Source: an uncultured Bacteroidales bacterium
GTDB lineage: Bacteria > Bacteroidota > Bacteroidia > Bacteroidales > P3
Length of the DNA stretch: 64,000 nucleotides
NCBI GenBank assembly: GCA_900315335.1
Contig: OMYR01000018.1
Location: forward strand, 3,516 to 67,515
Direction of reading: 5' to 3'
The translations under genes and the position numbers were made by a program. Below the pieces are notes generated by a model. It saw only the letters and a list, made by a program, of their open reading frames with translations, did not search any database and was not told the origin of the DNA. How positions within the stretch are numbered: position 1 is the first letter of the stretch; each line of letters begins with the position of its first letter. This document shows, one piece after another, positions 17,500-64,000 of this stretch.

Positions 17500-17583
17500 A
17501 TTAAAAAATTAGTGTTTGACATTAAAAAATTAATGTGAGTGATTAATAAAATAGTGTTAAACATCAGTTTTGCGATAAGTGAT
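17500..17583. repeat. 21-bp-phased repeat array, locus D (4 exact-phase units)
   Basis: Units are ATTAAAAAATTAGTGTTTGAC / ATTAAAAAATTAATGTGAGTG / ATTAATAAAATAGTGTTAAAC / ATCAGTTTTGCGATAAGTGAT, starting at 17500, 17521, 17542 and 17563. Confidence 0.8.
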
Positions 17584-20193: not shown

Positions 20194-20195
20194 TC

Positions 20196-20268
20196 ATAAA
20201 ATTAGTCTCAGTAATTGTAAAAATAGTTTCACTAACTAAAAAATTAGTTTCACTAATCAATTAACTGA
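20196..20268. repeat. 21-bp-phased repeat array, locus E
   Basis: Sequence AAATTAGTCTCAGTAATTGTAA / AAATAGTTTCACTAACTAAA / AAATTAGTTTCACTAATCAA. Unit starts at 20199, 20221 and 20241. Confidence 0.75.
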
Positions 20269-26193: not shown

Positions 26194-26278
26194 CAAGTGT
26201 TATCAGTTTTTTAGTGTTAATGATTATTGTCGTGATGTGAGAGATTAATTTTTTAGTGTTAAACACTATTTTGATAAA
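26194..26278. repeat. 21-bp-phased repeat array, locus F
   Basis: TTAGTGTTAATGATTATTGTCGTGATGTGAGAGATTAATTTTTTAGTGTTAAACACTATTTTGATAAA. The two TTAGTGTT words start at 26211 and 26253, which is 42 nt or 2 x 21. Confidence 0.75.
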
Positions 26279-26317: not shown

Positions 26318-27973
26318 TTATGCAAATACAGACGTAAATTCAAATGACTTCGCATCAAACAAACCCTTATCGCTGAGTTTTATTTCGGGGATTACCAAAA
26401 GAGCCATAAACGCCATAGTCATAAACGGTGCATTCATCTTGCAGCCCAATGATTTGGCAAAATTATTCAGGCTTTCATACTTGCTTGAAACAACATCTAT
26501 TGTTTCGTTACTCATAAGTCCTGCAATAGGTAGTGGTAGAGTTTCTGTTTTTTCTCCATTTGTAATACATATACCACCTTTGTTTGCAACGAGTTGGTTG
26601 ATAACTTTAACAATAAGTTCATCGCTTGTTCCAACGGCAATTATGTTGTGGGAATCGTGGGCTATCGTAGAAGCCATTGCACCATTCTTTAATCCGAAAC
26701 CATTAATGAATGCAACGGCAGGCTTTGTATTATTGTACCTGTTACATACCACCAATTTCAAGATATCGTTCTTTGTATCGGATACTACAAAATTATCTTG
26801 GATTTTAGCATTACAAACAATGCTTTCTGTATATAATTCCTTGTCTTTGGCTTTAATTACTTTGATTGCAGATGTTTGAGCAATTAATTTAATATCTGTT
26901 TCAGTGATTTCGCTTCTGTTGAAATTGTTAATAATATTTGTATTATCGCTAAGTAAATCGTTGCAAACAAGATTATTATTTGTCTTATCAAAGACTTGTT
27001 TGCCCGAAATGAAAGTAGATTGTATTTCAAAGTATTTTAGATTATTTACAACGATAAAGTCTGCTTGGTCGTCTTTTCTCAGTATTCCGATTGGTAGTTT
27101 GTAATGTGAGATAGGATTTAACGAGCTTGTTTGCAGTATGTTGAATAAAGACAATCCTTTTTCCATACTTCGCTTTACGAGTGTATCAATATAAGAATTT
27201 TGAAGTTCGTTCGGGTGAATGTCATCACTGCAAAACATAGTCATTGTAGGGTATTTGTCAATCAGTTGCCATAGATTATCAAAGTTTTTTGCAGCACTGC
27301 CTTCACGAATCAAGCACTTTATTCCATATTTTATTTTAGTCTCCGCTTCAACGTATGAAGAACTTTCATGGTCAGTGGAAATACCTGCAAGCGAGTATGC
27401 TAAAATATCTTTGTCCTCTAACATCGGAGCATGGCCGTCAATAGGTTTTCCGACTTGTTTGGCGTATTCGATTTTCCTTAGCACTTCCTCGTTTTTGTTC
27501 AATACACCAGGAAAATTCATCATCTCTGCAAGAGCGTATATCTCCTTTTTCTCCAACAATTGTTTGACGTCTTGGCTGTTCAAGGTGTAGCCCGAAGTCT
27601 CGAAATTCGTTGCCGGAACGCAAGAAGGAGCCGTGAAAGCAAAATGAAAACACGATTGTTTGCTGTTTTCAATCATAAAATTTATTCCTTGCGTACCACA
27701 CACGTTTGCTATCTCGTGAGGATCGCATACAGCACCTACAATACCGTGGCGTACAGCTTCTTTTGCATATTGAGGGGGCAATAGCATTGAACTTTCAATA
27801 TGAACATGGGAATCAATCAAGCCGGGAAGAATATATGGTGCGTTGCTATCAATGTCGGGTATTGGAATAATATCCTCAATCTTACCATTCTTAACGTACA
27901 ACTCTCCATCTATAAGTGTTTTGTCTGCAACGGATAAGATATGTCCTTTTATTACGAAATTATTGTTTAACAT
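26318..27973 (-). CDS. ade: Adenine deaminase
   Basis: Amidohydrolase motif GLIDSHVHIESS, then CDPHEIANV and DGHAP. Start moved to ATG 27973 (MLNNNFVIKGHIL). The 21 extra codons in the ORF track are read-through of repeat locus G. Confidence 0.85.
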   Translation of the reverse strand: MLNNNFVIKGHILSVADKTLIDGELYVKNGKIEDIIPIPDIDSNAPYILPGLIDSHVHIESSMLLPPQYAKEAVRHGIVGAVCDPHEIANVCGTQGINFMIENSKQSCFHFAFTAPSCVPATNFETSGYTLNSQDVKQLLEKKEIYALAEMMNFPGVLNKNEEVLRKIEYAKQVGKPIDGHAPMLEDKDILAYSLAGISTDHESSSYVEAETKIKYGIKCLIREGSAAKNFDNLWQLIDKYPTMTMFCSDDIHPNELQNSYIDTLVKRSMEKGLSLFNILQTSSLNPISHYKLPIGILRKDDQADFIVVNNLKYFEIQSTFISGKQVFDKTNNNLVCNDLLSDNTNIINNFNRSEITETDIKLIAQTSAIKVIKAKDKELYTESIVCNAKIQDNFVVSDTKNDILKLVVCNRYNNTKPAVAFINGFGLKNGAMASTIAHDSHNIIAVGTSDELIVKVINQLVANKGGICITNGEKTETLPLPIAGLMSNETIDVVSSKYESLNNFAKSLGCKMNAPFMTMAFMALLVIPEIKLSDKGLFDAKSFEFTSVFA

Positions 27974-27977
27974 TATT

Positions 27978-28061
27978 AAAATAGTTATGGAGATTAATTT
28001 ATTAGTGTCCATAACTATTTTAATAACTATGGACACTAATTTTTCAGTTATTGAGATTATT
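27978..28061. repeat. 21-bp-phased repeat array, locus G (4 exact units, palindromic pair)
   Basis: Units are AAAATAGTTATGGAGATTAAT / TTATTAGTGTCCATAACTATT / TTAATAACTATGGACACTAAT / TTTTCAGTTATTGAGATTATT. Units 2 and 3 form ATTAGTGTCCATA...TATGGACACTAAT, with perfect 13-bp arms. Confidence 0.8.
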
Positions 28062-38382: not shown

Positions 38383-38470
38383 AAAATTAGTGTTAAGCAT
38401 TATCAAATTAGTGTTAAACATTGGTAAAATAATATTAAACATCAGTAAAACGATTAGTGGTACCGTGATT
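38383..38470. repeat. 21-bp-phased repeat array, locus I
   Basis: Units AATTAGTGTTAAGCATTATCA / AATTAGTGTTAAACATTGGTA / AAATAATATTAAACATCAGTA / AAACGATTAGTGGTACCGTGA. ATTAGTG words start at 38386 and 38407. Confidence 0.8.
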
Positions 38471-43222: not shown

Positions 43223-43244
43223 ATAGTTTGCACGGAAGCGAAAA

Positions 43245-43335
43245 ATAATGTTTAACACTAAAAAATTAATCTCTCACATTAATAAATTAGTGTTAAACAT
43301 TAAAAAATTAGTTTCTCATACTGTAAAACCGATTA
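43245..43335. repeat. 21-bp-phased repeat array, locus J (clearest palindromic words)
   Basis: Units AATAATGTTTAACACTAAAAA / ATTAATCTCTCACATTAATAA / ATTAGTGTTAAACATTAAAAA / ATTAGTTTCTCATACTGTAAA, starting at 43245, 43266, 43287 and 43308. Confidence 0.8.
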
Positions 43336-44169: not shown

Positions 44170-45900
44170 ATGAGAAGAAAGAGTATTTTGGCGGGATTAT
44201 TATTCACCACCGCCTTAGCATTAAGCACGGCAGCCTTTGCTTGCACCAATTTCTTATTCACAAAAGGTGCTACAAAGGACGGCTCAACGATGATTACCTA
44301 TGCGGCAGATTCTCATACCTTGTATGGAGAACTTTATTACAGACGTGCTGCACAATATCCGGCAGGAACGATGATTCAAATCATTGAATGGGACACCGGC
44401 AAGCCGCTTATCAAAATTCCACAAGCAGCACAAACCTACACCACCGTTGGAAATATGAATGAATGGGGTTTGGTTATAGGTGAAACGACTTACGGCGGCA
44501 GAGAAGAATGTTGGGATTTGGGCAACGGCATAGACTACGGCTCATTGATATACTTAACATTGCAAAGAACCAAGACCGCTCGTGAAGCAATCAAGCAAAT
44601 AGCGGATTTTATGGCTACATACGGCTACGCTTCGGAGGGAGAAAGTTTTTCCATAGCCGACGGAGAAGAAGTTTGGATAATGGAACTTATCGGCAAGGGC
44701 AAAGGTAACAAAGGTGCCGTTTGGGTTGCAAGAATGATACCCGACGGTTATGTTTCGGGACACGCAAACCAAGCACGTATAACCACATTCCCTTTGGAGA
44801 CAAAGAAGAACACAACATCTATCTCCTACAAAAACATTAAGAAAATATTCGATAAAAACATTACAACCGTATATGCTGACGACGTTATCACATTTGCACG
44901 TTCCAAGGGTTGGTTCAATGGTAAGGATTCCGAATTTTCTTTTTCCGACACCTACGCTCCATTGACTTTCTCGGGCGTCAGAGGTTGCGAGGCCAGAGTT
45001 TATGCAATGTTTAACCGCATCAACTCAACTATGCACAAATACGAAGACTACGCAATGGGCAAAACTTTGGCTTCGGTTAATGTTGAAAGAATGCCTCTTT
45101 GGATTAAACCCGACCATAAAGTGAGCGTTAAGGAAGTTATGGACTTGATGCGTGATTATTATCAAGGTACGGCAATGGATATGTCTAAGGATTTGGGAGC
45201 AGGTCCTTATGGTTGTCCTTACCGTTGGAGACCTATGACTTGGAGTGTCGATGGTCAAAACTATATTCACGAAAGAGCAACTTCCACCCAGCAGACAGGC
45301 TTTTCATTTGTCGGACAAACCAGAAGTTGGATGCCTGCAAAAGCCAAAGGTATCTTATGGTTCGGTGTAGATGACACATATACTACGGTCTATGTGCCTA
45401 TGTATGGTTCTATCGCCAAAGTTCCTCATTGCTTTGAGGAGGGTAACGGTTCTATGGTCGAATATTCGCCAACTTCCGCTTTCTGGAAATTCAACCAAGT
45501 TACGAACTGGGTATATACCCGTTGGAAAGATATGATTGTCGATTTGCAAAAAGTACAAAACAACTTGGAAAACTCATTCATTAAAGAGGTAGAACAAATC
45601 GACGCTAAGGTAAAGAATATGGACGATGTTGATGCAATGTGTAAGATATTGACAGACTTTTCCGTTGCAAAGGGAGACCAAACTTTCGAGGCTTGGAGCA
45701 ATCTTTACAATTACTTATTGGTTAAATACATCGACGGTAATATCAAGAAAGAAAAGGACGGCAAATTTGAGGAGACCGGCTACCGCAAGGGTGATTGTGT
45801 CTTTCCGCAGCAGCCTGCTTATCCGGAAGAATGGTATCGTATGATTGTCAAAGACCACGGAGACGTTATCAAGGACCTTAGCCCGAAGGAGACCAAATAA
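44170..45900 (+). CDS. C69-family dipeptidase
   Basis: 576 aa. Signal peptide followed by the nucleophile context AFACTNFLF. Size and overall pattern fit peptidase C69. Confidence 0.8.
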   Translation: MRRKSILAGLLFTTALALSTAAFACTNFLFTKGATKDGSTMITYAADSHTLYGELYYRRAAQYPAGTMIQIIEWDTGKPLIKIPQAAQTYTTVGNMNEWGLVIGETTYGGREECWDLGNGIDYGSLIYLTLQRTKTAREAIKQIADFMATYGYASEGESFSIADGEEVWIMELIGKGKGNKGAVWVARMIPDGYVSGHANQARITTFPLETKKNTTSISYKNIKKIFDKNITTVYADDVITFARSKGWFNGKDSEFSFSDTYAPLTFSGVRGCEARVYAMFNRINSTMHKYEDYAMGKTLASVNVERMPLWIKPDHKVSVKEVMDLMRDYYQGTAMDMSKDLGAGPYGCPYRWRPMTWSVDGQNYIHERATSTQQTGFSFVGQTRSWMPAKAKGILWFGVDDTYTTVYVPMYGSIAKVPHCFEEGNGSMVEYSPTSAFWKFNQVTNWVYTRWKDMIVDLQKVQNNLENSFIKEVEQIDAKVKNMDDVDAMCKILTDFSVAKGDQTFEAWSNLYNYLLVKYIDGNIKKEKDGKFEETGYRKGDCVFPQQPAYPEEWYRMIVKDHGDVIKDLSPKETK

Positions 45901-45930
45901 TAAACTACATTTAATTTTCAATATATTGAC

Positions 45931-45965
45931 AAACCGCCGCAATTATGTGGCGGTTTATTTTATTT
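45931..45965 (+). terminator. Rho-independent terminator after the dipeptidase gene
   Basis: Stem AAACCGCC ... GGCGGTTT followed by ATTTTATTTATTT. Confidence 0.7.
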
Positions 45966-46088
45966 ATTTGAATTTGTGTCGTTCCGCACTGCCATTAATA
46001 TATAATGATGTACTTCTTTCGTCCCATTGTCTTTAATTTTTATTTGAAACACCCCATTTTTTATCCGCTACACGCCACTTAGAGTTTC

Positions 46089-46295
46089 AAATACGCAGGT
46101 TTGTGTTCCAAACACGGTAGTTCTCGTTCCAAACACGGAGGTTCGTGATGTATATAGTACTATATAGCGACTATATATAGTACTATATAGTAACCGTATA
46201 TAGTACTATCTGCGTCACGAATCTCCGTGTTTGGAACGAAAACCTGCGTGTTTGGAACGAGAACTACCGTGTTTGGAATATAAACCTGCGTATTT
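46089..46295. repeat. 207-bp composite inverted-repeat element (iteron arms plus three central palindromes)
   Basis: The left arm AAATACGCAGGTTTGTGTTCCAAACACGGTAGTTCTCGTTCCAAACACGGAGGTTCGTGATG matches the reverse complement of the right arm, except that the right arm carries one extra unit of about 21 nt (GCAGGTTTTCGTTCCAAACAC). The centre holds TATATAGTACTATATA at 46151 and 46174 plus a partial copy at 46197 (23-nt period). Confidence 0.85.
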
Positions 46296-46402
46296 TTATT
46301 AAAAACTGCCGTATCTTGAATGAGAAATAAAGAATCCGCCGATAGTTCTACCGACGGATTCTCAAAAAATGAACAATTAGGTAATGAAATTTGTTTGCCA
46401 AA

Positions 46403-46954
46403 TTATTTGATGTCCCTTAAAAATTCTTCCAATTGCGAGCGGGTGGGATTATTTAGAAGTTTGCCGCCTTTGATATTGACTTTCGGGTTGGCGGATTTAA
46501 GGTCTTGAACGGCTTTATCGATAGTGCTGCCGCCCGAAGTGGCGAATAGAATAACGGTTTTGCCGCTTAAATCGTAGGTTTCAAAGAAAGTGTCAATGAT
46601 TTCGGGGTTGCTGTACCACCAGATAGGGAAGCCGACGTAGATAATGTCGTAAGAGGTTACGTTGTCAGCCTTTTTGATTGCAGGGCGTAAGTCGTCGCGA
46701 TGCTCAATTGTGGAGCGGGAGTTTTTGTCCGTCCAATCCAAATCGGCATCGGTGTATGCCTTTTCGGGAGTTATGGGTTGAATGTCGGCGTTAGCCATCG
46801 AAGCCAATTGTTTAGCCACTGCTTCGGTTGTTCCCGTGGCGGAGAAATAAGTTACAAGCGTTTTCATTTGTTTGCCCTCCTTGTTGTGTTTTTGACCGCA
46901 CGCCGTAAAAGCTAAGATAGAAAGTGCGGCGATGATTAATAAAATGCGTTTCAT
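46403..46954 (-). CDS. Flavodoxin with lipoprotein signal peptide
   Basis: 183 aa. Lipobox ILAFTACGQ. FMN-phosphate loop KTLVTYFSATGTTEAVAKQLA. Also GFPIWWYS. Confidence 0.8.
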   Translation of the reverse strand: MKRILLIIAALSILAFTACGQKHNKEGKQMKTLVTYFSATGTTEAVAKQLASMANADIQPITPEKAYTDADLDWTDKNSRSTIEHRDDLRPAIKKADNVTSYDIIYVGFPIWWYSNPEIIDTFFETYDLSGKTVILFATSGGSTIDKAVQDLKSANPKVNIKGGKLLNNPTRSQLEEFLRDIK

Positions 46955-46977
46955 TTGTGTTTTAGTTTTTGAGTTAC

Positions 46978-47019
46978 AAGAAAAAAACGGAAAAAATAAA
47001 TTTATATTGTTTTCCGTTT
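46978..47019 (-). terminator. Rho-independent terminator after the beta-lactamase gene
   Basis: On the minus strand: AAACGGAAAA - loop - TTTTCCGTTT followed by TTTTCTTG. Confidence 0.7.
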
Positions 47020-47040
47020 ATTCATTATGTTAAAAAAACA

Positions 47041-47973
47041 CTAATTTGAAGAACAAATAAATTGATATATCGTCTTTGAAATTTCGGCAATAACTTTCTC
47101 GGCTTCTTCCTGTGTTCCCTTGTAATCTTTTACAAGAATGACAACCGTATATGTTTTGCCATCGGGAAGAGTTATGAACCCACCGTCATTAACAGCGGCA
47201 ATTTCTCCTTTTTCGTTAGTGTAGCCCGAGCCTGTTCTGTGTGCGAAAGTTATGTTTTTATTTTTTGGAAGTCCTGCCGCTATACGGTTCATTCCTGTCT
47301 GACATAGTTGCATTGTGTGTTTGATATAGTCTTGACAAGGTTTGCAAGTCAGACTGTCGGTAAATACTTTATGGACAAGTTTTGCAAAGGACATTGGAGA
47401 AGTTACGTTGGAATACGCAAGCGAATGGTCTTTCGACATATCGGCTTCTTTGTATATGAGTTTGAAACCGCGTTCGGGCAATATGGTAGAGGCTATTATG
47501 CTGTCGGTATTTGCAACATTTACAATGCGGTCAAAAAGAATATTGCTTGCATTGTTGTCGCTATCTACCATAAGATACATAATCAAATCCTTTATGCTTA
47601 TATCAAAACCTTCGTGGCTGTACTGTTTCAACATAGGGCTCCATGTGTTGGTATCTATTTCATTGCTGTTTATGGTTATAACGCTGTCAAGCGAAGTGTT
47701 GCTTTTGCTTAAAACGTTACATACGGCAATGGACTGATGAAGTTTGAACATACTCATCAACGGATAAGTTGCGGTGTTGTTCATTGCAAAAGAGTTGCTG
47801 TCGATGATTATCGCAATGCCGAATTGTCCTTTTTCGTCTGCAATTATCTTTTTTATATTGTTTTCAAGTGGAGCGAAATCCCCTGCATTGTTTGGCGAAC
47901 AGGCAGAAAACAGTTGTATCAAGACAGCAAAAGCAATAACTATGTTTGCTTTCAATCTAAATAATCTATACAT
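47041..47973 (-). CDS. Class A beta-lactamase
   Basis: 310 aa with a signal peptide/lipobox (LFSACS). S-x-x-K in PLMSMFKLHQ. SDN in VDSDNNASN. K/R-T-G in FAHRTGSG. The pattern resembles Bacteroidota class A (CfxA/CepA/CblA-like) enzymes. Confidence 0.8.
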   Translation of the reverse strand: MYRLFRLKANIVIAFAVLIQLFSACSPNNAGDFAPLENNIKKIIADEKGQFGIAIIIDSNSFAMNNTATYPLMSMFKLHQSIAVCNVLSKSNTSLDSVITINSNEIDTNTWSPMLKQYSHEGFDISIKDLIMYLMVDSDNNASNILFDRIVNVANTDSIIASTILPERGFKLIYKEADMSKDHSLAYSNVTSPMSFAKLVHKVFTDSLTCKPCQDYIKHTMQLCQTGMNRIAAGLPKNKNITFAHRTGSGYTNEKGEIAAVNDGGFITLPDGKTYTVVILVKDYKGTQEEAEKVIAEISKTIYQFICSSN

Positions 47974-52270: not shown

Positions 52271-52390
52271 TTCTGTACTTTTTGATATTGCAAACCATAT
52301 TTTTGGGGTTTGCGTGTGATTATCAAACTGCTTTAATGAATTTTTTGCAAAGGTAACTCATTTTAATAATTTACAAGGTTTATCAAACCA

Positions 52391-52497
52391 AAAAATAATT
52401 TCAATAACCAATAAAATAATCTCAATGATTAGTAAATTAGTTTCATTAATCATTTTGCTGATGTTTAACACTAATTTTGCAATAACACTTATTAATT
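52391..52497. repeat. 21-bp-phased repeat array, locus K (divergent queA/ackA intergenic region)
   Basis: Units AAAATAATCTCAATGATTAGT / AAATTAGTTTCATTAATCATT / TTGCTGATGTTTAACACTAAT / TTTGCAATAACACTTATTAAT. Confidence 0.75.
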
Positions 52498-54580: not shown

Positions 54581-56335
54581 ATGCTTAGAACAAAAACTTG
54601 CGGAGAATTAAGAATAGAAGATTGCGGTCAAAAGGTTGTACTATGTGGTTGGTTGCAAAAATCACGTGATTTGGGAAGTATGACTTTTATTGATTTAAGA
54701 GACCGTTACGGAATAACGCAATTGGTTTGCAATATCGATACAAACAAAGAGCTTTACACTCAAACGAAGAGCCTTAACAGAGAATATGTCCTTCAAGTTA
54801 CAGGCACGGTAAGAGAGAGAAGTAATAAAAACAAAAACATACCTACCGGTGATATTGAGATAGAAGTAGAAAAGATAAACATCTTGAATACCGCCAAATT
54901 ACCGCCTTTTACGATAGAAGACAATACTGACGGTGGCGATGAATTAAGAATGAAGTATCGTTATTTGGATTTACGTCGTCCTGTTGTCAGGAAGAATTTG
55001 GAATTAAGACATAGATTGGCACGTTTGATAAGAAATTATCTTTCTGACGAAAGTTTTCTTGAAATAGAGACGCCTTTCTTGATTCGTTCCACCCCGGAAG
55101 GAGCAAGAGATTTCGTTGTTCCGTCAAGAATGAACCCTAATCAGTTTTATGCTTTGCCACAAAGTCCGCAGCAATATAAACAACTGCTTATGGTTGCAGG
55201 CTTTGACAGGTATTTTCAGATAGTTAAATGTTTTAGAGACGAAGATTTGCGTGCAGACCGTCAGCCTGAATTTACACAGATAGACTGTGAGATGTCTTTT
55301 GTTGAGCAGGAAGATGTCCTTGTAATGTTTGAAGGTTTGATAAAACATTTGTTTGAACAAGAAAAAGGCTTGAAATTTGACAAATTCCCGAGAATGACTT
55401 GGCAAGATGCGATGAAATATTACGGAAGTGATAAACCTGATTTGCGTTTTGATATGAAATTTGTTGAACTTAACGATGTGGCACAAGGTAAAGGCTTTTC
55501 TGTTTTCGATGATGCTGAATTGGTTGTAGGTATTTGTGCCAAAGGTTGCGCATCTTACACAAGAAAACAATTGGACGCTTTGACGGATTTCGTTAAACGT
55601 CCGCAAGTCGGTGCAAAAGGTCTTGTTTATATCAAATACAATGAGGACGGAACTTTCAAATCATCAATCGATAAATTCTATTCGCAAGAGGATTTGCAGC
55701 GATTTGCAACAAAATTCGGTGCAGAAAAAGGCGATTTGATGCTTGTAATGTCGGGTAAAACTATGCAGGTTCGCACTCAACTTTGTGCATTACGTTTGGA
55801 AATGGGTTCTCAACTTAATCTTAGAAATCCATTCAACTACGCTATAACTTGGATAACCGATTTTCCATTGTTGGAATGGAGTGAAGAGGATAAGCGTTTC
55901 TATGCTATGCACCACCCATTCACATCTCCAAACCCGGAGGATTATCCTGAGTTGTTGGATAAAGATCCGGGCAAAGTACGTGCTTGGGCATACGACTTGG
56001 TTATTAATGGAACGGAAGTCGGTGGCGGCAGCGTGAGAATACATGACAGAAATATGCAGATGCGTATGTTTGAGGCGTTGGGCTTTACTCCTGAGTCGGC
56101 AATGGCTCAGTTCGGATTCTTTATGAATGCTTTTGAATACGGAGCGCCACCTCACGCAGGTATAGCCTTTGGTTTTGACCGTTTGTGTTCAATATTTGCG
56201 GGCGTTGAGAGTATTCGAGATTTCATAGCCTTTCCTAAGAACAACAGCGGTAGAGACCTTATGAGTGATTCGCCAAATGTTATCGACCAAAAACAATTGG
56301 ACGAATTGTACTTATCATTGGTTAAACCCGAATAA
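54581..56335 (+). CDS. aspS: Aspartate--tRNA ligase
   Basis: 584 aa. OB-fold N-terminus ([22 protein letters not shown]). Class II motifs [42 protein letters not shown] and GIAFGFDRL. Confidence 0.95.
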
Positions 56336-56380
56336 TGATTGGTTAAATTAAATAGTGATTAGTTAAATCACATAATGCTT
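56316..56380. repeat. Repeat-family-like array, locus L (overlaps the aspS stop codon)
   Basis: CATTGGTTAAACCC / GATTGGTTAAATTA / GATTAGTTAAATCA, with units starting at about 56316, 56337 and 56357 (21 and 20 nt apart). A weaker member of the family. Confidence 0.45.
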
Positions 56381-56416
56381 AATGGGGATTGCCGCGACTT
56401 TGCGGCAATCCCCATT
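56381..56416 (+). terminator. Hairpin terminator after aspS
   Basis: Perfect 15-bp stem AATGGGGATTGCCGC - GACTTT - GCGGCAATCCCCATT followed by TGTTTAT. Confidence 0.7.
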
Positions 56417-56982: not shown

Positions 56983-58305
56983 TCATTGCTGTCCGGAGAA
57001 ATTTTACCATAAAGTGAGTTGCCTGGCAGAGTCGTCCTCCGGAACATTTAACGGCTCAACAGGTTTGTTATAAAAATCTCGGATGTCTCCTCTTTTGAAG
57101 AGAATCTGTCCGATGGAATTAGAAATTGTATGAAGACTGGGCTTCAATCCATATTGCTTCTTTGCTATAATAAGCAGCAGATAGTCACAAATGGCTATCC
57201 ATATCTGCGTATAGACAGCATTCCTGGATGTGCCATAGAATGTCTTGATATGCAGATGCTGCTTAATCCATTTGAAGAATATTTCAATCTGCCATCTCTC
57301 CCGATACAGTTCAGCAACTGTAAGTGCTTCGACGATGAAGTTATTGGTGAGAAAACGGTAGACTTTTCCATCCCTAAAATCCTCATACACTACAAGCCTG
57401 AGATTATCGGGGTACTTCTTGGAAGTATAATATCCGGAAAGTTTGACCGTTTCGTCAGAAATAAGACCGGCGTGCGAATCAACTTCACGAGACTCGACAA
57501 CTTCGTACAACATATTATCCTTGGCTCTCGTAACGAACCACGCGTGGTTTTGATGGAAGTGCTTGTAAAGCGTATCAAATTTCACATAACCTTTATCCAT
57601 GAGATAGTAGGCGTTCGCTTCTACGGGTATTTCTTCCATAATCTTGGAATCGTGTACAGAGGCTTCTGTGAGGCGGATAAAAGTAGGGATAGAACCATTC
57701 AAATCCATAAGCGTATGCATCTTGAAACCTCCTTTCCCGTGATGAAGCGTGGCCCATGGACACAGAGAAAGACACAATTCAATGGTACTGCTGTCAAACG
57801 CACAAACCATTTCATCAAGGTCAAGTCTGAGTCTTTCTCCCTCATACAACTTCTTGGCCTTCTGTATCAAGACGTAACCAAAGTCCTGATAAATACGCCA
57901 GTCCCTTTTCTCGTTCGCTTCCGCAAGTGTGGATTTCGGCATAATCTTCAGACCGGATCTATACAAGTCTTGCGAGCAAAGATCAAGAGTAGTCTCAATA
58001 TCTCTCAAACCGCTTCTGTCTGTGAATTGCGCAAAACTCATTACCAAGAACTGGTCTCGGCAATTAAACTTTATTGCATGTCGGTCACCTTTGTAATGTT
58101 TGACACACTTGCTGAATTCATATTCGGTAAAAAGAGACATAAGTTGAGCGAAGATTGTTTTGCCTTTATTCATGACTTGCAGAAACTGGATTTAATACCA
58201 TTCTGCAAACTTACGAGTTCTAATCGAAAAATAATTTTTGCCTTGTAACTTATTATATTTTAAATAATTAAATGCTATCGGAGATTTTTTCTCCGGACAC
58301 TAATG
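56983..58305 (-). mobile_element. IS4-family insertion sequence (about 1.32 kb)
   Basis: Terminal inverted repeats CATTGCTGTCCGGAGAAA (56983-57000) and TTTCTCCGGACACTAATG (58288-58305), matching at 16 of 18 positions. A single transposase ORF lies inside. I could not find a flanking direct repeat. Confidence 0.8.
57004..58173 (-). CDS. IS4-family DDE transposase
   Basis: 389 aa. N-terminal MNKGKTIFAQLMSLFTEYEFSKCV (DUF4372-like region common in Bacteroidota IS4 transposases). DDE-region contexts AFDSSTI, YYLMDKGY and ERWQIEIFFKWIKQ. Confidence 0.85.
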   Translation of the reverse strand: MNKGKTIFAQLMSLFTEYEFSKCVKHYKGDRHAIKFNCRDQFLVMSFAQFTDRSGLRDIETTLDLCSQDLYRSGLKIMPKSTLAEANEKRDWRIYQDFGYVLIQKAKKLYEGERLRLDLDEMVCAFDSSTIELCLSLCPWATLHHGKGGFKMHTLMDLNGSIPTFIRLTEASVHDSKIMEEIPVEANAYYLMDKGYVKFDTLYKHFHQNHAWFVTRAKDNMLYEVVESREVDSHAGLISDETVKLSGYYTSKKYPDNLRLVVYEDFRDGKVYRFLTNNFIVEALTVAELYRERWQIEIFFKWIKQHLHIKTFYGTSRNAVYTQIWIAICDYLLLIIAKKQYGLKPSLHTISNSIGQILFKRGDIRDFYNKPVEPLNVPEDDSARQLTLW

Positions 58306-58546
58306 AATGAGTACATGTACACATATATACCTGTGTACATAGACACAGACGATGCCTGTCCACGAATGTTGAACGCACTAATTACTTTTTCTCATAACTG
58401 AGGGGTGCCTGCTCGTGATGAGTAGGCACCCTTGCCTTTTATGATAAAAACATGGGAATGGTCATGGAATGAATCTCGTATTTCATGCAATTAAAGCAAG
58501 GGAAACTAAAAAAATGCACCGTTTGCGTCATTTTTACGCCAAAATA

Positions 58547-58578
58547 TTTGGTTGCGTCAAAATAACGCATTAGCTTTG
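58547..58578 (+). promoter_or_regulatory. Bacteroides-type promoter (TTTG / TAGCTTTG) with embedded palindrome, upstream of the Nudix cassette
   Basis: TTTG at 58547-58550 and TAGCTTTG at 58571-58578 with a 20-nt spacer. TGCGTcaaaataACGCA (58553-58569) lies between the two boxes. Confidence 0.5.
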
Positions 58579-58604
58579 CACCTGTAATTGATAAATCATT
58601 TGGC

Positions 58605-59342
58605 ATGTACACATATAAATATCCTCATCCTGCTGTCACTACAGACAGTGTTATCTTTGGCTTTGATGGGTCGAGCATAAATATTCTCCTCATAGAGCGA
58701 GGTTTGGAGCCTTACAAAGGAACTTGGGCTTTGCCAGGTGGTTTCCTCTGCATGGACGAGACGGTCGAGGAGGGAGCCAAAAGAGAACTTTGTGAAGAGA
58801 CAAACATAAATAATGTCTATCTGGAGCAGTTTCATGTATTCAGTGAGGTTAATCGTGACCCTCGTGAAAGAGTGTTGACTGTTGCATTCTTTGCTTTGGT
58901 GAGCAAAAATGATTTCAAGGTTATAGCTGGTGATGATGCGAGCAAGGCTCAATGGTACGAGTGGAATCACCTGCCCCCTTTAGCCTTTGATCATTCTGAA
59001 ATCATCTCTATGGCAAGAAGGAAACTACAGGAAAAACTTAGAGTGTCACCCATCGCTTTCAAATTATTGGACAACGAGTTTAAGATGGACGAGCTGCAGC
59101 GAATCTATGAGTTAATACACGAGAAGAAGTATGACCGTCGCAATTTCCTTCGCAAGATGGAGGCTTCCGGGTTTCTCATAAAAAAGGAACAGGAAGATAA
59201 TCGTGTATGTGGTATGATGCTCCCTGACGTAATGGAAGACGCTGCTTCCCCACATACCCTCTATGCGTATTCATTTGATGAAGAAGCATTTGCAAAGGCA
59301 AGCACATCCAAAGAATGGCGTAAATATCCTTTTGACTTTTAA
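58605..59342 (+). CDS. Nudix hydrolase fused to a winged-helix domain (NrtR-like ADP-ribose-responsive regulator/pyrophosphatase)
   Basis: 245 aa. Intact Nudix box GGFLCMDETVEEGAKRELCEETNI. The C-terminal 80 aa or so (FKLLDNEFKMDELQRIYELIHEKKYDRRNFLRKMEASGFLI) matches the NrtR wHTH pattern as I recall it. Confidence 0.7.
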   Translation: MYTYKYPHPAVTTDSVIFGFDGSSINILLIERGLEPYKGTWALPGGFLCMDETVEEGAKRELCEETNINNVYLEQFHVFSEVNRDPRERVLTVAFFALVSKNDFKVIAGDDASKAQWYEWNHLPPLAFDHSEIISMARRKLQEKLRVSPIAFKLLDNEFKMDELQRIYELIHEKKYDRRNFLRKMEASGFLIKKEQEDNRVCGMMLPDVMEDAASPHTLYAYSFDEEAFAKASTSKEWRKYPFDF

Positions 59343-59354
59343 TATTATTTGACT

Positions 59355-59867
59355 ATGAGAACAATTAGAATCAACAGAAACTCAGATTTGAGATTACCTC
59401 ATTCTGTACGCTCTTATATTGACGGATGTGCACATGAGTTTTCCGAAACGGATGAATGGACAAAAATCGCTCACATAGCCTATAGGATAAAGCGTGGAGC
59501 AAATCTTCTGCCTTCTTTCATGGAAGACATAGAACGACACATGGCAGATCCAGCCTACCACGACTATGAGAATACGGCAAAGCAAAGTATCGCATCCTAT
59601 ATAGAACTGTTGCGTATTGATGAGAACTATGTCCTTACGATGGAACTGGCAGAAAGCAACAGTTTCCCGAAACTCTTTCAATTATTGACAGAAGAAATAC
59701 TCTATCGCTATTGGGAAAACATCAATGATGGCAAGGTAGAATGTCATTTCGATGATGTACATTATGACTACGATGAGATAGCCTCACGTTATGCAGATGT
59801 GACTACGGCAAGACGTGACTTCATCAAGTACATTTCAACCTCTCAGGAACACACTCCGCAACATTGA
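59355..59867 (+). CDS. Hypothetical protein (170 aa, acidic), cassette gene 2
   Basis: ATG at 59355, 12 nt after the Nudix stop. The track start at 59349 is a TTG. No recognisable motif. Confidence 0.55.
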   Translation: MRTIRINRNSDLRLPHSVRSYIDGCAHEFSETDEWTKIAHIAYRIKRGANLLPSFMEDIERHMADPAYHDYENTAKQSIASYIELLRIDENYVLTMELAESNSFPKLFQLLTEEILYRYWENINDGKVECHFDDVHYDYDEIASRYADVTTARRDFIKYISTSQEHTPQH

Positions 59868-59868
59868 C

Positions 59869-60666
59869 GTGGAAAAACATAACATCAAGCAGAAAAATGG
59901 GTGGGCAACGGTTGCTGAAAGCCTTTATGGTTATACGCTATGGTCTGACAAAGAAGAGGATGAACGCATATATCCTGGTGATGCCACGTTTATCCACGAC
60001 TTCAACAGCAAGGTGGATTCAAAATACAAGTATGTTGTGGGCGTGCCTCCTATGCCATTCTCAGGTAATTTGCTTGACGCCAAGGTTGTCATTCTGACGC
60101 TGAACCCTGGATATGTGGAAAAGGTTAACAAGGACTTATGTATGAACATGAACGATTCAGAGAAAGAGCAGTTGTTATGCTTAATGAGAAACGCACTATC
60201 CTTTCAGGGAGAAGGCATCTATGATGGTAACAAGTGTTCAAGAGCGCAAGGTAATTATTACTGGCAGCAGGCTTTTGACCAACTTGCAATAGAAGCATAC
60301 GGCAAGCCTTCATCAGAGATATACCATCCCATCTTTCACGATATAGCCATCTTTCAGCTCATCGGTTATCACTCAGAAAAATTTAGATACTCTTCGGGCA
60401 TAAAACATCTTCCTTCGACGATATTCACCAATCTGTTGGCAAAATATCTTGCCACGAAGACAGACAAGACCTTTCTCATTCTACGCTCAGAATCACTTTG
60501 GAAGGAAACCTTCGGCGAAGAACTGTGGAGCAAACTGGAGAAAGAAGACCGCCTCATTACCAAGGGGCATAAGGGGATGTCTCAGAAAATCACACGAGGC
60601 AACCTCCAAAAAGACAATGGTTTTGATAAACTTGTCAAACTTTTAAGGAATGATAGTCATGAGTAA
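59869..60666 (+). CDS. Hypothetical protein (265 aa from GTG 59869; 283 aa if ATG 59815), cassette gene 3
   Basis: The in-frame GTG at 59869 lies immediately after the upstream stop (TGA 59865-59867). ATG 59815 would overlap the upstream gene by 53 nt. Contains GNLLDAKVVILTLNPGY and FQLIGYHSEKF. No family confidently recognised. Confidence 0.55.
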   Translation: MEKHNIKQKNGWATVAESLYGYTLWSDKEEDERIYPGDATFIHDFNSKVDSKYKYVVGVPPMPFSGNLLDAKVVILTLNPGYVEKVNKDLCMNMNDSEKEQLLCLMRNALSFQGEGIYDGNKCSRAQGNYYWQQAFDQLAIEAYGKPSSEIYHPIFHDIAIFQLIGYHSEKFRYSSGIKHLPSTIFTNLLAKYLATKTDKTFLILRSESLWKETFGEELWSKLEKEDRLITKGHKGMSQKITRGNLQKDNGFDKLVKLLRNDSHE

Positions 60667-61108
60667 AAACAGAACAGAAAACCCAAATATAGCCTCAGAT
60701 AGAATCGATATTCTTGAAAAGGGTGAGATTTTCGTCTTTTGCAGTAATCTTGCCGGTCATCACATGGGTGGAGCTGCAAGAGCTGCTCACAAGAAGTTCG
60801 GCGCAGAATGGGGCGTTGGTGTAGGACTTACAGGTCAGTCCTATGCCATACCTACCATGCAGGGAGGTGTTGAAACTATCAAACCCTACGTTGATGAGTT
60901 CATTGAGTTTGCAAATCAGCACCAGGATATGAAGTTTCTGGTAACACGTATTGGATGCGGTATAGCAGGCTTCAAGGACGAAGAGATTGCTCCACTTTTC
61001 AGGAATGCTGTCCTTTCAAGCAACATTTACCTGCCACAGACGTTCTTCGACATCCTGCGCTGTCGTTCCCGTCGCCGAGAAATAGGCTACCAGTATTTTG
61101 TCGTTTGA
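60662..61108 (+). CDS. Macrodomain-like protein (A1S_2505-like phage-type family), 3' end chimeric
   Basis: ATG 60662 overlaps the upstream stop (ATGAGTAA). VFCSNLAGHHMGGAARAAHKKFGA and TRIGCGIAGF resemble the two macrodomain signatures. GQSYAIPT is a motif I associate with a phage-borne family. The last 20 codons or so (RCRSRRREIGYQYFVV) are antisense read-through of the truncated flavodoxin gene. Confidence 0.55.
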   Translation, partial: SKNRTENPNIASDRIDILEKGEIFVFCSNLAGHHMGGAARAAHKKFGAEWGVGVGLTGQSYAIPTMQGGVETIKPYVDEFIEFANQHQDMKFLVTRIGCGIAGFKDEEIAPLFRNAVLSSNIYLPQTFFDILRCRSRRREIGYQYFVV

Positions 61109-61198
61109 TTTTCCTTTGCCCATATCCTGTCTTTGCTGTGCGTCGGTGGCGGTCGCCATGCCGACCACCGACAGCAATATCAATAAGAACCTATACAT
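61016..61198 (-). pseudogene. Truncated flavodoxin gene (5' end of about 50 codons only)
   Basis: MYRFLLILLSVVGMATATDAQQ (signal) ... KILVAYFSATGTTAQDVEERL parallels the intact flavodoxin at 46403-46954 (KTLVTYFSATGTTEAVAKQL). It then diverges (WQVNVA) and stops. Full-length flavodoxins are about 160-185 aa. Confidence 0.7.
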
Positions 61199-61206
61199 GA
61201 TGTTTA

Positions 61207-62022
61207 CTATTTGAGTTTGTCATATTCCTCGTCAGTTACGGGTTCCAGCCACTCATTGGAAGCGTTTTCACCTGAAATCTCGAATGCGAGGTGCGCAAAC
61301 CAGCTGTCTGCCGCTGCTCCGTGCCAATGCTTCACATTTGCAGGAATGTGGATGACCGTTCCGGGCAGAATCTCTACGGCAGGTTTGCCTTCTTCCTGAT
61401 ACCAGCCGCGCCCGGCAACACCGATAAGCATCTGTCCGCCGCCTTTCGTTGCTTTGTGGATGTGCCAGTTGTTACGACAACGTGGCTCGAAGGTGACATT
61501 GGATATGTTCACCTGCTCCCGCGAAACCGGTGCGAGATAGCTATTGCCTGTGAAGTACTTGGCATAAGCTGTGTTCGGTTCTCCTATGGGAAAGATCATT
61601 TCACGCTGGAAAGCCGCCTTGGCATCCCCTCCTGTCGTGTCTTCTGCCCACACGTTCTTAGCGAGGTTGAATGCCGCCCAAGCCTTGGGCCATCCGGCAT
61701 AAAAACCGATGTGGGTGATAATCTCGGCAATTTCAGTGCGGGTGATGCCGTTTTTCTTCGCCTCCTGAAGATGAAAACCAAGTGAATTGTCTGTAATTCC
61801 TTGACTGATGAGCGAGGTAATTGTTACAAGACTACGGTCGCGAAGACCGAGTTTATCAGTACGACTCCACACCTCACCGAAGAGGACATCATCGTTAAGC
61901 TCCGCAAACTTGGGAGCGAACTCGCCGAGCTGGTTGCGCCCGGCCGTTTGTACTATCTTTTCCTGTGCCATAACATTGAATGTTAAAATGCTGAATATTG
62001 AAATTAAAATGATTTTATTCAT
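61207..62022 (-). CDS. Carboxymuconolactone decarboxylase-family / cupin fusion protein with signal peptide
   Basis: 271 aa. Signal MNKIILISIFSILTFNVMAQ. CMD region (VWSRTDKLGLRDRSLVTITSL...ITHIGFYAGWPKAW). Cupin region (NNWHIHKATKGGGQMLIGVAGRGWYQ...HWHGA). Confidence 0.75.
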   Translation of the reverse strand: MNKIILISIFSILTFNVMAQEKIVQTAGRNQLGEFAPKFAELNDDVLFGEVWSRTDKLGLRDRSLVTITSLISQGITDNSLGFHLQEAKKNGITRTEIAEIITHIGFYAGWPKAWAAFNLAKNVWAEDTTGGDAKAAFQREMIFPIGEPNTAYAKYFTGNSYLAPVSREQVNISNVTFEPRCRNNWHIHKATKGGGQMLIGVAGRGWYQEEGKPAVEILPGTVIHIPANVKHWHGAAADSWFAHLAFEISGENASNEWLEPVTDEEYDKLK

Positions 62023-62027
62023 GATTC

Positions 62028-63023
62028 TTACTGAATGAAGTTATTGATTCGGTTTGCAGGGTTAAGCGGTGTCTGGTCAGTCAGCACCAGTGACTTGACC
62101 ATGTGCAGCGTTCCCTGCTTGTATTTCTGAAAATGCTCCGAGGCAATGTGCTTCTCGTAGGCTTCACGGCTTGCGTAGGTTTCGAGAATGGTTATCTTGC
62201 AGGGATTCTCTTTTTCACCGACAGCGTACATGGTCAGTACGCCCGGTTCGGTACGCAGGGAGACTTCGCCAACCTCGGTTGCGTATTTCATATACTCGTC
62301 GAGATACTGCGGGTAAACCTCGATTTTCGACAGGCGCACGATACCGTTGGCACCCATCGCTTCCTTGACGCACATTCCCGGCTGCTTGTCCAAGTTCAAA
62401 CATTTTCCGATAATCTCTCCGGTGGCAATATAGGAATAGGTCGGAAACTCGAACAGTACAGGTTTCAATCTTGTATAGTCGAGTTTCCCGTCAGCGTCAA
62501 GTACATCCGGAGCAGCGTAAGTGTTGGCAATGGAGCAGATGAAGTTGTCGAAGCCTTCGGTTTCGTAGATGTCCACCACGTCACACTCCATCGTCAGCGG
62601 TGAGGCATCGATTACGGGCGTTCCGTTTTCTCCCCAATGGTATTCGAATAGGTTTGATTTATCGACCGATGCACCGCTCACGCTGCCCACATAGTCGGCT
62701 TTCGGCAACATTTCGCGACTGACAAGGTTGATAGAAAGTTTCTTTGACTCACGTATCCCTTGATTGGTGTAGTGGCTTTTACTCATGCTCACGAGAATCC
62801 GGTCGTGACCGATGATACCCGTATGTCCCACAACAAGCCAGTTTACCTTGCCCTCTACCTCCGCACCGACAACGGTCATTGGCTTGGGATAGAGAGCAAG
62901 CAGGTTTCCGATATTCTTCTTTTCCATTTCCGTACTGTTTTGTTTGTTTGTCTCTTTTGTCGGCTGCGTATTGCACGACAACAAAAGGGAGAGAAACAAG
63001 ATGGTTAATATTGATTTTCTCAT
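62028..63023 (-). CDS. Flavin reductase-like / ABM (antibiotic biosynthesis monooxygenase) fusion lipoprotein
   Basis: 331 aa. Lipobox LLLSCNTQ. Flavin-reductase-like N-domain (PKPMTVVGAEVEGKVNWLVVGHTG). C-terminal ABM-like domain (IVRLSKIEVYPQYLDEY...TILETYASREAYEKHIASEHFQKY). Confidence 0.7.
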   Translation of the reverse strand: MRKSILTILFLSLLLSCNTQPTKETNKQNSTEMEKKNIGNLLALYPKPMTVVGAEVEGKVNWLVVGHTGIIGHDRILVSMSKSHYTNQGIRESKKLSINLVSREMLPKADYVGSVSGASVDKSNLFEYHWGENGTPVIDASPLTMECDVVDIYETEGFDNFICSIANTYAAPDVLDADGKLDYTRLKPVLFEFPTYSYIATGEIIGKCLNLDKQPGMCVKEAMGANGIVRLSKIEVYPQYLDEYMKYATEVGEVSLRTEPGVLTMYAVGEKENPCKITILETYASREAYEKHIASEHFQKYKQGTLHMVKSLVLTDQTPLNPANRINNFIQ

Positions 63024-63038
63024 TCTTATGATTGCATT

Positions 63039-63614
63039 TCAGATACTTTTAATCATTTTTGCCGGGACACCGCCCACGACCGTATTGACCGCTACGTCTT
63101 TCGTAACGACTGCACCTGCCGCGACAATGGCATTGTCACCGATAGTCACACCTTGTAATATCGTGGCATTAGAGCCAATCCATACATTCTTACCAAGCAC
63201 GATTGGTGCCGGATACGTGTGCTTACGTTCTTCGGGAGCAAGGCCGTGGTTAAGCGTGGCAAAGACTACATTATGCCCGATTTGGCATCCGTCGCCTATC
63301 GTGACACCGCCATGATCCTGAAAATGACAACAAGCGTTGATGAACACTCCTTCGCCTACGGTGATGTTTTTCCCGAAATCAGCGTAAAACGGCGGGAAAA
63401 CACGAAGCGACTGCGGTACTTCATAGCCGAGCAACTCGGATAGCATTCCGCGCACTTCATCCGGCGTATGATAAGCCGTATTCAGACGAAAAGTGATGCG
63501 ACGGGCCTCGTTGCTCATCTCATCCATAAAGCAGTGTATCTCTTCTGTATCAAGAGGTTTGCCCGCATTTGCATATATCTTAAAATCTTCGATTGTCATA
63601 TTTATTTTTTTCAA
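63039..63614 (-). CDS. Sugar O-acetyltransferase (maltose/galactoside acetyltransferase-like, left-handed beta-helix)
   Basis: 191 aa. Hexapeptide repeats (IGDGCQIGHNVVF, IGSNATILQGVTIGDNAIVAAGAVV). Mac-type N-terminus. Start may be ATG 63599 (MTIEDF). Confidence 0.8.
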   Translation of the reverse strand: MKKINMTIEDFKIYANAGKPLDTEEIHCFMDEMSNEARRITFRLNTAYHTPDEVRGMLSELLGYEVPQSLRVFPPFYADFGKNITVGEGVFINACCHFQDHGGVTIGDGCQIGHNVVFATLNHGLAPEERKHTYPAPIVLGKNVWIGSNATILQGVTIGDNAIVAAGAVVTKDVAVNTVVGGVPAKMIKSI

Positions 63615-64000
63615 ATTTAACCTTTATATCTCCGCCTACTGTCAGAGCAGAAATGCCATCGTCATCTATATGTCCAATCCTAATCAGGTCATTGCTGTGT
63701 GACCAGTTCTTGCAAAAAATAGCCACGTTGCCCCACGGAGCATATATCGTAATATCGCCGGGAACAGGTGCGCAACCGCGTTTTACCCCTTCAAGTGTCA
63801 AAGCCGGATCAGGATAAAATATTTTCTCTGTCGTATTATTAAAGTCGTTCAGCGTAACTTCCAACGGCAGACGGGAAAGGAAATCCCTGCCTGCCGCATT
63901 GTCTTCCATTGTGGCGGAAATTATCCGGTCGCCTACTATGATGTTCACTTTCAAAGAAGTTGCGTCCGGCGTATCGGGTTCGCCCGGTTCTTCCCGGCTT
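63580..64000 (-). CDS. Cyclophilin-like-fold protein, partial (5' end beyond the right window edge)
   Basis: The ORF track starts at a TTG (63954), but the frame stays open to nt 64000. My hand translation upstream reads SREEPGEPDTPDATS, a typical post-lipobox linker. The core is VNIIVGDRIISATMEDNAAGRDFLSRLPL...GDITIYAPWGNVAIF. Confidence 0.65.
   Translation of the reverse strand, partial: SREEPGEPDTPDATSLKVNIIVGDRIISATMEDNAAGRDFLSRLPLEVTLNDFNNTTEKIFYPDPALTLEGVKRGCAPVPGDITIYAPWGNVAIFCKNWSHSNDLIRIGHIDDDGISALTVGGDIKVKFEKNKYDNRRF

Follow-up and report, generated by a model that had tools for sequence, protein, structure and literature searches.

A mirror-symmetric array of 21-bp repeats between convergent genes of an uncultured Bacteroidales bacterium: a candidate phased protein-binding site

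Location and repeat architecture of the element

The DNA analysed here (the window) is a 64-kb stretch of contig OMYR01000018.1 and part of the chromosome of an uncultured Bacteroidales bacterium; an earlier note, made from its letters alone, had drawn attention to a composite palindrome at 46089-46295 between a C69 dipeptidase gene (44170-45900, + strand) and a flavodoxin gene (46403-46954, - strand) of convergent orientation. This location holds, and the element is tentatively interpreted below as a cis-acting, phased protein-binding array. Each of the two genes has its own canonical intrinsic terminator outside the element: that of the dipeptidase gene (45931-45956, + strand) consists of an 11-bp stem (6 GC pairs) and then ATTTTATTTA, that of the flavodoxin gene (46363-46330, - strand) of a 15-bp stem followed by TATTTCTCAT. 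The element thus fills the zone between two terminators, which, judged from these boundaries, is probably untranscribed, and it was rightly said not to be a simple terminator. The element itself forms a stem of ~100 bp with a U-tract on the + strand only (46290-46299).

Each arm is built of five 21-nt units, L5-L1 (46042-46146) and R1-R5 (46217-46321), which combine a core of 12 nt with a spacer of 9 nt and decay in outward direction; the symmetry axis lies at 46181/46182. In the left arm (+ strand), the core GTTCCAAACACG is exact in L2 (46105-46125; spacer GTAGTTCTC) and in L1 (46126-46146; spacer GAGGTTCGT), that is, at 46105 and 46126 as originally described, and has two mismatches at 46084 in unit L3 (46084-46104; core GTTTCAAATACG, spacer CAGGTTTGT). 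In the right arm (- strand), for which three inverted copies had been claimed, those at 46226 in R1 (46217-46237; spacer GAGATTCGT) and at 46247 in R2 (46238-46258; spacer CAGGTTTTC) are exact, but the third, at 46268 in R3 (46259-46279), differs by one mismatch (ATTCCAAACACG); its spacer is identical to that of L2 (GTAGTTCTC). The sequence AAATACGCAGGTTT, with which both arms begin, occupies 46089-46102 within L3 and pairs with its reverse complement at 46282-46295; the further partial terminus AAAACTGCCGTAT is present from 46302 (46301 when the fifth A is included). All features ascribed to the 207-bp segment are in place, but the repeat structure exceeds it and reaches ~46042 on the left and ~46321 on the right: the outer degenerate units L5 (ATTTGAAACACC+CCATTTTTT) and L4 (ATCCGCTACACG+CCACTTAGA) follow the 21-nt spacing at 46042-46083 (+ strand) and are 72-78% complementary to 46241-46328, and R4 (AATAAAAATACG+CAGGTTTAT) and R5 (ATTCAAGATACG+GCAGTTTTT) at 46280-46321 (- strand) complete five copies in 21-nt spacing, the long stem being followed here by TATTTTTATT on the + strand.

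Ordered toward the centre, the spacer types read C-B-A in the left arm and C-B-C'-A in the right arm; R2 is therefore an unpaired extra unit and accounts for the additional ~21 nt noticed before on this side. It has no left-arm partner, opens a 21-nt gap in the alignment of the arms and bulges out in both the DNA and the RNA folds; apart from this one unit, the arms 46089-46143 and 46217-46295 are complementary. Between them lies an AT-rich centre (46151-46212, 74% AT) with three copies of the palindrome TATATAGTACTATATA in 23-bp phasing: those at 46151 and 46174 are exact, the latter being the middle palindrome whose centre coincides with the symmetry axis, and that at 46197 is partial (2 mismatches), as had been stated; such matches are expected by chance ~0.5 times per whole window. 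The calculated folding energy of the 207 nt as DNA is -79 kcal/mol versus -20 +/- 3 kcal/mol for shuffled sequences (z = -18), that of the 306-nt region as RNA -146 kcal/mol (z = -20). The mirror-symmetric structure is far beyond chance.

Occurrence and divergence between haplotypes

Among species representatives, "Bacteroidales bacterium Phil12" (NWBO01000141) is closest, with a dipeptidase of 99% identity. Identical copies of the element are present in independent ENA and Logan assemblies from several samples, a diverged copy in Phil12 and at least four further assemblies, and four independent assemblies of 33-129 kb (L001, L002, L006 and L252) span the element without interruption; it is not an assembly artefact, and the four spanning contigs are also evidence against further near-identical copies in those genomes. 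A second copy was found neither in the 64 kb, where no other exact GTTCCAAACACG exists (in agreement with the earlier note), nor in the 2.1 Mb of fetched loci, so far as the proposed comparison with related DNA reached: only copies of this same locus were recovered. Among 72,556 plasmids there was no BLAST match, and among 50,697 phages there were chance-level matches only. In viral scans a single chance match, within a gene, was obtained; the 16-bp palindrome alone occurred once each in 102 contigs of these scans, which is the chance level. None of the 54 matches of a metagenome scan for GTTCCAAACA-N11-GTTCCAAACA was this element: they comprised 21-bp arrays unrelated to it, coding repeats, and arrays of cyanobacterium-like type that have the 12-nt core in common with it. 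Long direct 21-bp arrays were seen in the metagenome contigs L200, L233, L238 and L240 (also L221), which have ~42-45% G+C; the first four have the 12-nt core GTTCCAAACACG as well, L221 has 11 nt of it in common, and the GCGATCGC motifs of L238 give this contig a cyanobacterial look. The spacers of these arrays are unrelated and an inverted partner is missing; the shared core is probably a coincidence.

In the reachable data only two haplotypes exist, with ~94-96% identity across 14 kb; the comparison below is that of the window sequence with L006 (Phil12 type). All ten full or partial contigs show the centre in one orientation, and its inversion was rejected. Logan contigs and several short assembly contigs (L003, L005, L244-L246, L253-L256, L261) end within the arms or the centre, as an inverted repeat would lead one to expect; the locus fragments short-read assemblies, and metagenome-assembled genomes could lack it or join it wrongly.

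Among the five inner units, 1 of the 12 core columns is variable compared with 7 of the 9 spacer columns (Fisher p = 0.002), the invariant core being GTTCCAAACA(CG). In pairwise comparison, the spacer types A, B and C' are unlike at 4/9 positions, yet the cores are identical; this combination of invariant core and variable spacer is the classical iteron pattern, which neutral decay of duplicated units would not be expected to give. Between the haplotypes, 46089-46295 differs by 14 substitutions and no indel, and 11 of these substitutions fall into two 8-nt blocks (46136-46143 and 46220-46227). Outside the blocks 3 of 191 positions are changed (1.6%), versus 21 of 185 plus indels in the flanking intergenic DNA (p = 8e-5) and 16 of the 227 four-fold sites of the dipeptidase gene (p = 0.008). 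The segment 46144-46219 has just 1 substitution; the outer units L5/L4 have 4/52 differences, the R4/R5 region has 7/29 substitutions and a 5-nt indel, the R3 core is more decayed in L006 (46271 G>T), and the dipeptidase terminator is conserved (2/32 substitutions). The number of units is the same in both haplotypes, beside a 21-bp tandem duplication of TTAATATATAATGATGTACTG ~70 bp to the left of the element that is polymorphic even inside the Phil12 type: it is present in most contigs of this type (window 46003-46023; L006:7827-7870) and lacking in L254 and the window type. In consequence, 21-bp duplication must be regarded as ongoing in this lineage.

In each of the innermost units, L1 and R1, the block takes in the final two bases of the core and six of the spacer. 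The two blocks read CGGAGGTT and AATCTCCG in the window and GTCTGATA and TATTAGCC in L006, so that 6/8 positions are changed in the left block and 5/8 positions, mirroring it, in the right block. Four of the eight block pairs are clean partner swaps (C-G>G-C, G-C>C-G, A-T>T-A, T-A>A-T), the remaining positions being changed on one side or not at all, and the pairing is largely retained (window: 7 Watson-Crick pairs and 1 G.U; L006: 6 and 1 G.U with 1 mismatch). With 11 changes in 16 nt at 5% genome divergence, stepwise compensatory evolution is impossible. We can name one mechanism only: several bases would have changed together in one arm, and template switching within the palindrome would have transferred the change to the other arm, a process established for quasi-palindromes in E. 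coli; a donor sequence for the L006 block was not found nearby. The single substitutions at 46123 and 46271 are not compensated in L006, and pairing is accordingly not under strict continuous selection.

A candidate protein-binding array and alternative explanations

According to the interpretation that we prefer, to which we assign a probability of roughly 0.37, the element is a cis-acting phased protein-binding array at one locus, whose arms are kept symmetric by intra-palindrome template switching; it would be confined to one lineage and is known from one locus, and would be neither a gene nor a mobile element. Recognition cores of 10-12 bp (GTTCCAAACA[CG]) would recur once per 21 bp on each arm, and since 21 bp correspond to two helical turns, the cores of one arm would be exposed on the same face of the helix. 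The arms would face each other across the 74% AT centre with its three AGTACT-centred 16-bp palindromes in 23-bp phasing, a segment that could be easily melted or extruded and would have a protein array on either side. The phased cores of both arms might be bound cooperatively by a sequence-specific DNA-binding protein whose gene is located elsewhere in the genome, with formation of a symmetric nucleoprotein complex in the presumably untranscribed zone between the terminators; a chromosome-organising site, a barrier or insulator between the convergent transcription units, or a protein-titrating binding site are candidate roles for it. The long palindrome would at the same time promote template switching at replication and thereby keep the arms alike, to which the mirrored change of the 8-nt blocks is attributed. 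Both the binding of a protein and the role of the complex are inferred; observed are the anatomy, the contrast of core and spacer, the low divergence, the fixed unit number, the co-variation of the arms, and the lack of a promoter box and of hallmarks of mobility, origin or centromere.

The iteron signature, i.e. the contrast of core and spacer together with the exact 21-nt spacing, favours such a binding array; the low divergence outside the blocks is taken as purifying selection, and the fixed unit number beside the polymorphic neighbouring duplication favours a function. Intact inner cores and decayed outer units are expected if only the centre-proximal sites are used. The terminators on either side and the lack of an exact match to the Bacteroidetes -7 box TAnnTTTG on either strand of 45850-46450 speak for an element that is not related to transcription, and the dominance of 21-22-bp phasing in Bacteroidales and a second composite palindrome in a related genome (see below) are counted as context in favour.

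Several observations weigh against this interpretation. The contig search with the dipeptidase, its cluster members and nine contig look-ups revealed in relatives with a dipeptidase of <=90% identity other downstream genes, broken synteny and no element; any function is thus young or dispensable. The conservation statistics are those of two haplotypes with small counts, and other intergenic regions nearby diverge by 3-15%. No candidate for the binding protein emerged, and no DNA-binding gene is located within ~10 kb, the nearest DNA-binding domain being that of an NrtR-like regulator ~12 kb away. As the clade readily makes 21-bp arrays, some of the regularity may be mutational, and a protein array needs no mirrored spacers, so the blocks require template switching as a second process. 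Two neighbouring proteins (490 aa and 347 aa) were considered as local binding partners and rejected, as they are membrane or surface proteins.

The main rival, which we regard as less probable and on balance unlikely, is a neutral palindromic minisatellite without dedicated function: an ancestral hairpin in the unconstrained spacer that separates two convergent terminators would have been lengthened in both arms by 21-bp replication slippage, the same slippage-prone sequence being mirrored on each arm, and template switching would keep the arms similar. The origin of the structure is well explained in this way. In the sampled Bacteroidales loci (L007-L085 and the window, 0.95 Mb) the periods of intergenic tandem arrays peak at 21-22 bp (31/98 arrays, against 8 arrays of the next commonest period), a 21-bp array is present in 4/5 convergent intergenic regions of the window, and mixed direct and inverted 21-22-bp modules exist elsewhere (L013, L015, L067, L214). 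The element itself adjoins a fresh polymorphic 21-bp duplication, fades gradually at its edges, has unequal unit numbers in its arms and is limited to a lineage at ~95% average nucleotide identity; its mirrored block is better explained by template switching than by stepwise compensation. The conservation of the cores, the low divergence and the fixed unit number are not accounted for: neutral decay would strike cores and spacers equally, whereas here the cores are invariant while the spacers of the same units differ at ~44% of positions, and the 1.6% divergence outside the blocks is opposed to 11% in adjoining intergenic DNA. Moreover, the unit number is constant across the haplotypes, though minisatellites usually vary (compare the repeat numbers of 1 to 22.8 in the BrickBuilt element, PMC4596501).

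A long + strand hairpin RNA, produced by read-through of the dipeptidase terminator and acting as fail-safe terminator and RNase III target that prevents sense transcripts from entering the flavodoxin gene in antisense direction, appears improbable. The structured RNA considered in the earlier note retains in its favour that 5 of the 6 main-stem mismatches are G.U when read on the + strand, whose fold is 13-17 kcal/mol better than that of the - strand in both haplotypes, that UAUUUUUAUU follows the stem on the + strand and is conserved in L006, and that the pairing survives the change of the 8-nt block; for the composite palindrome of L013, too, the strand of the flanking genes gives the more stable fold. 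However, the + strand is G-rich on either side and probably the leading strand, so that a C>T bias alone would give G.T mismatches on it. The TAnnTTTG box is missing and a good terminator lies 130 nt upstream, a hairpin needs no identical repeated cores, which rather favour out-of-register pairing, and the substitutions at 46123 and 46271 are uncompensated. With Rfam 15 nothing was above the gathering threshold at the element (the sole match of the window is a tRNA at 9023-9097); under relaxed thresholds only generic miRNA-precursor hairpin models were matched, with 45 bits versus 130 required. A reading of TGGAAC...CGT as sigma-54-like or ECF-like promoter, compared by eye, was rejected for its misfitting spacing.

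Also considered, and very unlikely, are a replication origin (relic or satellite), a centromere for partition, and a replication-fork trap of opposed terminator sites. The centromere- or origin-like site proposed before is borne out as far as the iteron signature is concerned (core and spacer, 21-bp phasing, 74% AT centre), and the inverted arrays of sites resemble the paired Ter sites of R6K and IRI/IRII of B. subtilis. Not found, in contrast, were a rep, par, tus or rtp-like gene nearby, a DnaA box (TTATCCACA, <=1 mismatch) in 45000-47500, a parS site (TGTTTCACGTGAAACA, <=3 mismatches) in the window, or similarity to plasmid or phage replicons beyond the chance-level phage matches, and the flanking genes (pyrH, dipeptidase) are housekeeping genes. 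The GC skew is positive on the + strand on either side of the element regardless of gene direction, and the cumulative skew climbs without inflection from 34 to 60 kb, through 46 kb and across genes on both strands, which speaks against both an origin and a terminus. A dif site was rejected together with the searches for DnaA box and parS, and so was a cluster of restriction sites in the centre, AGTACT being mildly under-represented (12 observed, 21 expected).

The least probable explanation is a non-autonomous transposon of the miniature inverted-repeat type (MITE), or a relic pair of Tn7/Mu-type ends with the 21-bp units as transposase-binding sites in inverted arrays; the several phased ~21-bp sites per arm, in unequal numbers, resemble Tn7 and Mu ends. 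The terminal inverted repeats exist, the locus is a synteny breakpoint with a presence/absence difference of the adjoining gene, and Bacteroidales MITEs with 22-23-nt minisatellites are known (BrickBuilt, PMC4596501); but the MITE suggested earlier fails, since no target-site duplication is present at any plausible boundary (flanks GAGTTTC/AAATACG... and ...CGTATTT/TTATTAA without direct repeat), complementarity runs on outward and then fades instead of ending sharply, the outermost units are the most degenerate, opposite to transposon ends, no copy from another locus was found in the 64 kb or the 2.1 Mb of fetched loci, four assemblies span the element, and its ends are unlike those of the insertion sequence (IS) of the IS4 family in the window or the IS5-like terminal repeats of BrickBuilt. 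Tn7/Mu-type ends are contradicted by the lack of 5'-TG...CA termini (the candidates are TGTG at 46102 and TATA on the opposite strand), by flanks of these candidates (AGGTT/AACCT) that are reverse complements and not direct repeats, and by the absence of an encoded rve or Mu transposase from the window.

Genomic neighbourhood, further 21-22-bp repeats and known systems

Nearby genes encode PyrH (UMP kinase), a GDSL lipase, a class A beta-lactamase, an acetyltransferase, SpoIID, QueA and the two membrane or surface proteins. The beta-lactamase (47041-47973) is CfxA-like (subclass A2), with scores below the family-specific cut-offs; its gene is the most diverged between the haplotypes (8.8%). 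The flavodoxin region 46374-46990 is missing in Phil12-type genomes, with a clean junction of ~10 bp overlap; the flavodoxin terminator hairpin is kept in L006 without the flavodoxin gene and is located there 3' of the beta-lactamase gene. The sole mobile element of the window is the IS4-family IS at 56983-58306 (DDE_Tnp_1 and DUF4372), whose 19-bp terminal inverted repeats (TCATTGCTGTCCGGAGAAA) are unrelated to the element; to its right (58000-64000) the G+C content rises from ~0.37 to 0.47, which may mark acquired DNA including the NrtR-like regulator. The palindromes ACTAGT, AGATCT, CTTAAG and GTATAC are absent from the window (~21 expected each), which suggests restriction-site avoidance.

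Repeats of 21-22 bp are not restricted to this locus, and intergenic arrays of this period are densest in the window organism's close relatives. A second, undescribed composite palindrome is present at L013:3515-3928 in a metagenome-assembled genome of a related rumen Bacteroidales (JAGBJI010000009); the whole segment L013:3515-4145 comprises inverted 21-nt arrays, eight palindromic AAAAGTCGGACTTTT units and then a 42-bp TATATA-rich array. Smaller mixed direct/inverted modules occur in L015, L067 and L214; at L214:4370-4720 (chromosomal contig, 37% G+C) about eight direct 21-bp units TGTTCCAAACATTATCGTTTT precede two copies in inverted orientation and further short repeats, all located between a housekeeping gene and an IS3-family IS. 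In the window, a dispersed AT-rich 21-mer family (AAAATTAGTGTTWAAC; consensus ~AAAAATTAGTGTTTAACATTA) has 24 matches versus 8 expected (sites 12658-12694, 17500-17571, 20191-20257, 26237-26273, 27956-28042, 38383-38419, 43241-43319, 52386-52478 and 56331-56381), often paired or arrayed in 21-bp phasing and sometimes paired in inverted orientation. Several copies are situated 100-300 bp upstream of genes in gene orientation, others fill convergent intergenic regions; they might belong to a REP-like family or form an array bound by a regulator. The membership of the iteron unit in it was rejected, as a 12/21 match to the consensus (permutation p = 0.03) is too weak.

We consider it doubtful, more so than the binding array at this one locus, that the element is the best-preserved case of an undescribed class of chromosomal "palindromic iteron platforms" in Bacteroidales with L013:3515-3928 as the second instance. 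In such platforms, unlinked sequence-specific proteins would occupy 21-bp-phased cores in two inverted arms around an extrudable palindromic centre, and the peak at 21-22 bp would reflect a family of phased DNA-protein assemblies, e.g. LytTR-like readers, barriers or chromosome organisers. If a protein indeed assembles at the element, a gene-unlinked iteron platform would exist on the chromosome of a member of this phylum, in which chromosome organisation and cis-elements other than promoters have received very little study; palindrome arms that co-evolve would have a clean natural example in the mirrored 8-nt block, and the 21-22-bp periodicity across the sampled loci would point to a general architectural rule. 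If the element is merely a neutral minisatellite, it still breaks short-read assemblies and marks a lineage-specific habit of 21-bp duplication.

The L013 palindrome resembles the element in its inverted 21-nt arrays (AAACGCCGAAGAAAAATAAA and reverse complement) around 21-22-bp-phased perfect palindromes; it differs by an unrelated sequence, larger size (~414 bp), lower perfection (70-74%) and a position upstream of a TonB-dependent-receptor-like gene instead of between convergent genes. Among described repeats of the same order, Porphyromonas gingivalis contains intergenic 22-, 23- and 41-nt tandem repeats, some within the BrickBuilt MITE, which is present in ~19 copies and made up of direct repeats of 23 nt, leader and tail segments, and terminal repeats that are IS5-like (PMC4596501). 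Like the element, BrickBuilt and the PgRS repeats are strictly intergenic and have units (22-23 or 41 nt) with a conserved and a variable part (PMC4596501). In contrast to BrickBuilt, the element has palindromic, inverted arrays with a 21-nt period at one locus, a fixed unit number and no GAGACCTTTGCA-like end; it fails the defining features of BrickBuilt.

Repeats of the REP/BIME/REPIN, BOX and Correia types are extragenic and hairpin-forming as well, often located between convergent genes and modular with internal repeats (BOX). They occur in tens to hundreds of copies per genome, REPs together with a RAYT transposase, whereas the core of the element is confined to this locus within 64 kb; a RAYT/Y1 transposase was not detected among the 54 open reading frames of the window that were scanned. 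The mirrored multi-base changes at 46136-46143 and 46220-46227 have their counterpart in quasi-palindrome template-switch mutagenesis (Ripley model; E. coli thyA), which is a mutational process and not a functional class and accounts for the likeness of the arms, not for the conservation of the cores.

With regard to plasmid systems, the repeats of R1 parC, P1 parS and the pSM19035 heptad arrays are bound cooperatively into one complex, and two phased repeat sets flank a centre as in the element; here, parA, parR or parB are not found nearby, the core is unrelated to parS, and the location is not on a plasmid. The iteron arrays of theta plasmids and phage origins (RK2 oriV, pSC101, P1, lambda ori) have 17-22-bp repeats with a phasing of about two helical turns, and they share with the element the alternation of a conserved contact core with a variable spacer and an adjoining AT-rich, meltable region. 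They are direct and lie on one side of this region, whereas the arrays described here are inverted and symmetric about it, are chromosomal, between housekeeping genes, and have neither an initiator gene nor DnaA boxes nor plasmid or phage homology. The element would seem to be related to iteron or palindromic intergenic repeats and, rather than a transposon, an origin or a terminator, most resembles a docking site for a DNA-binding protein.

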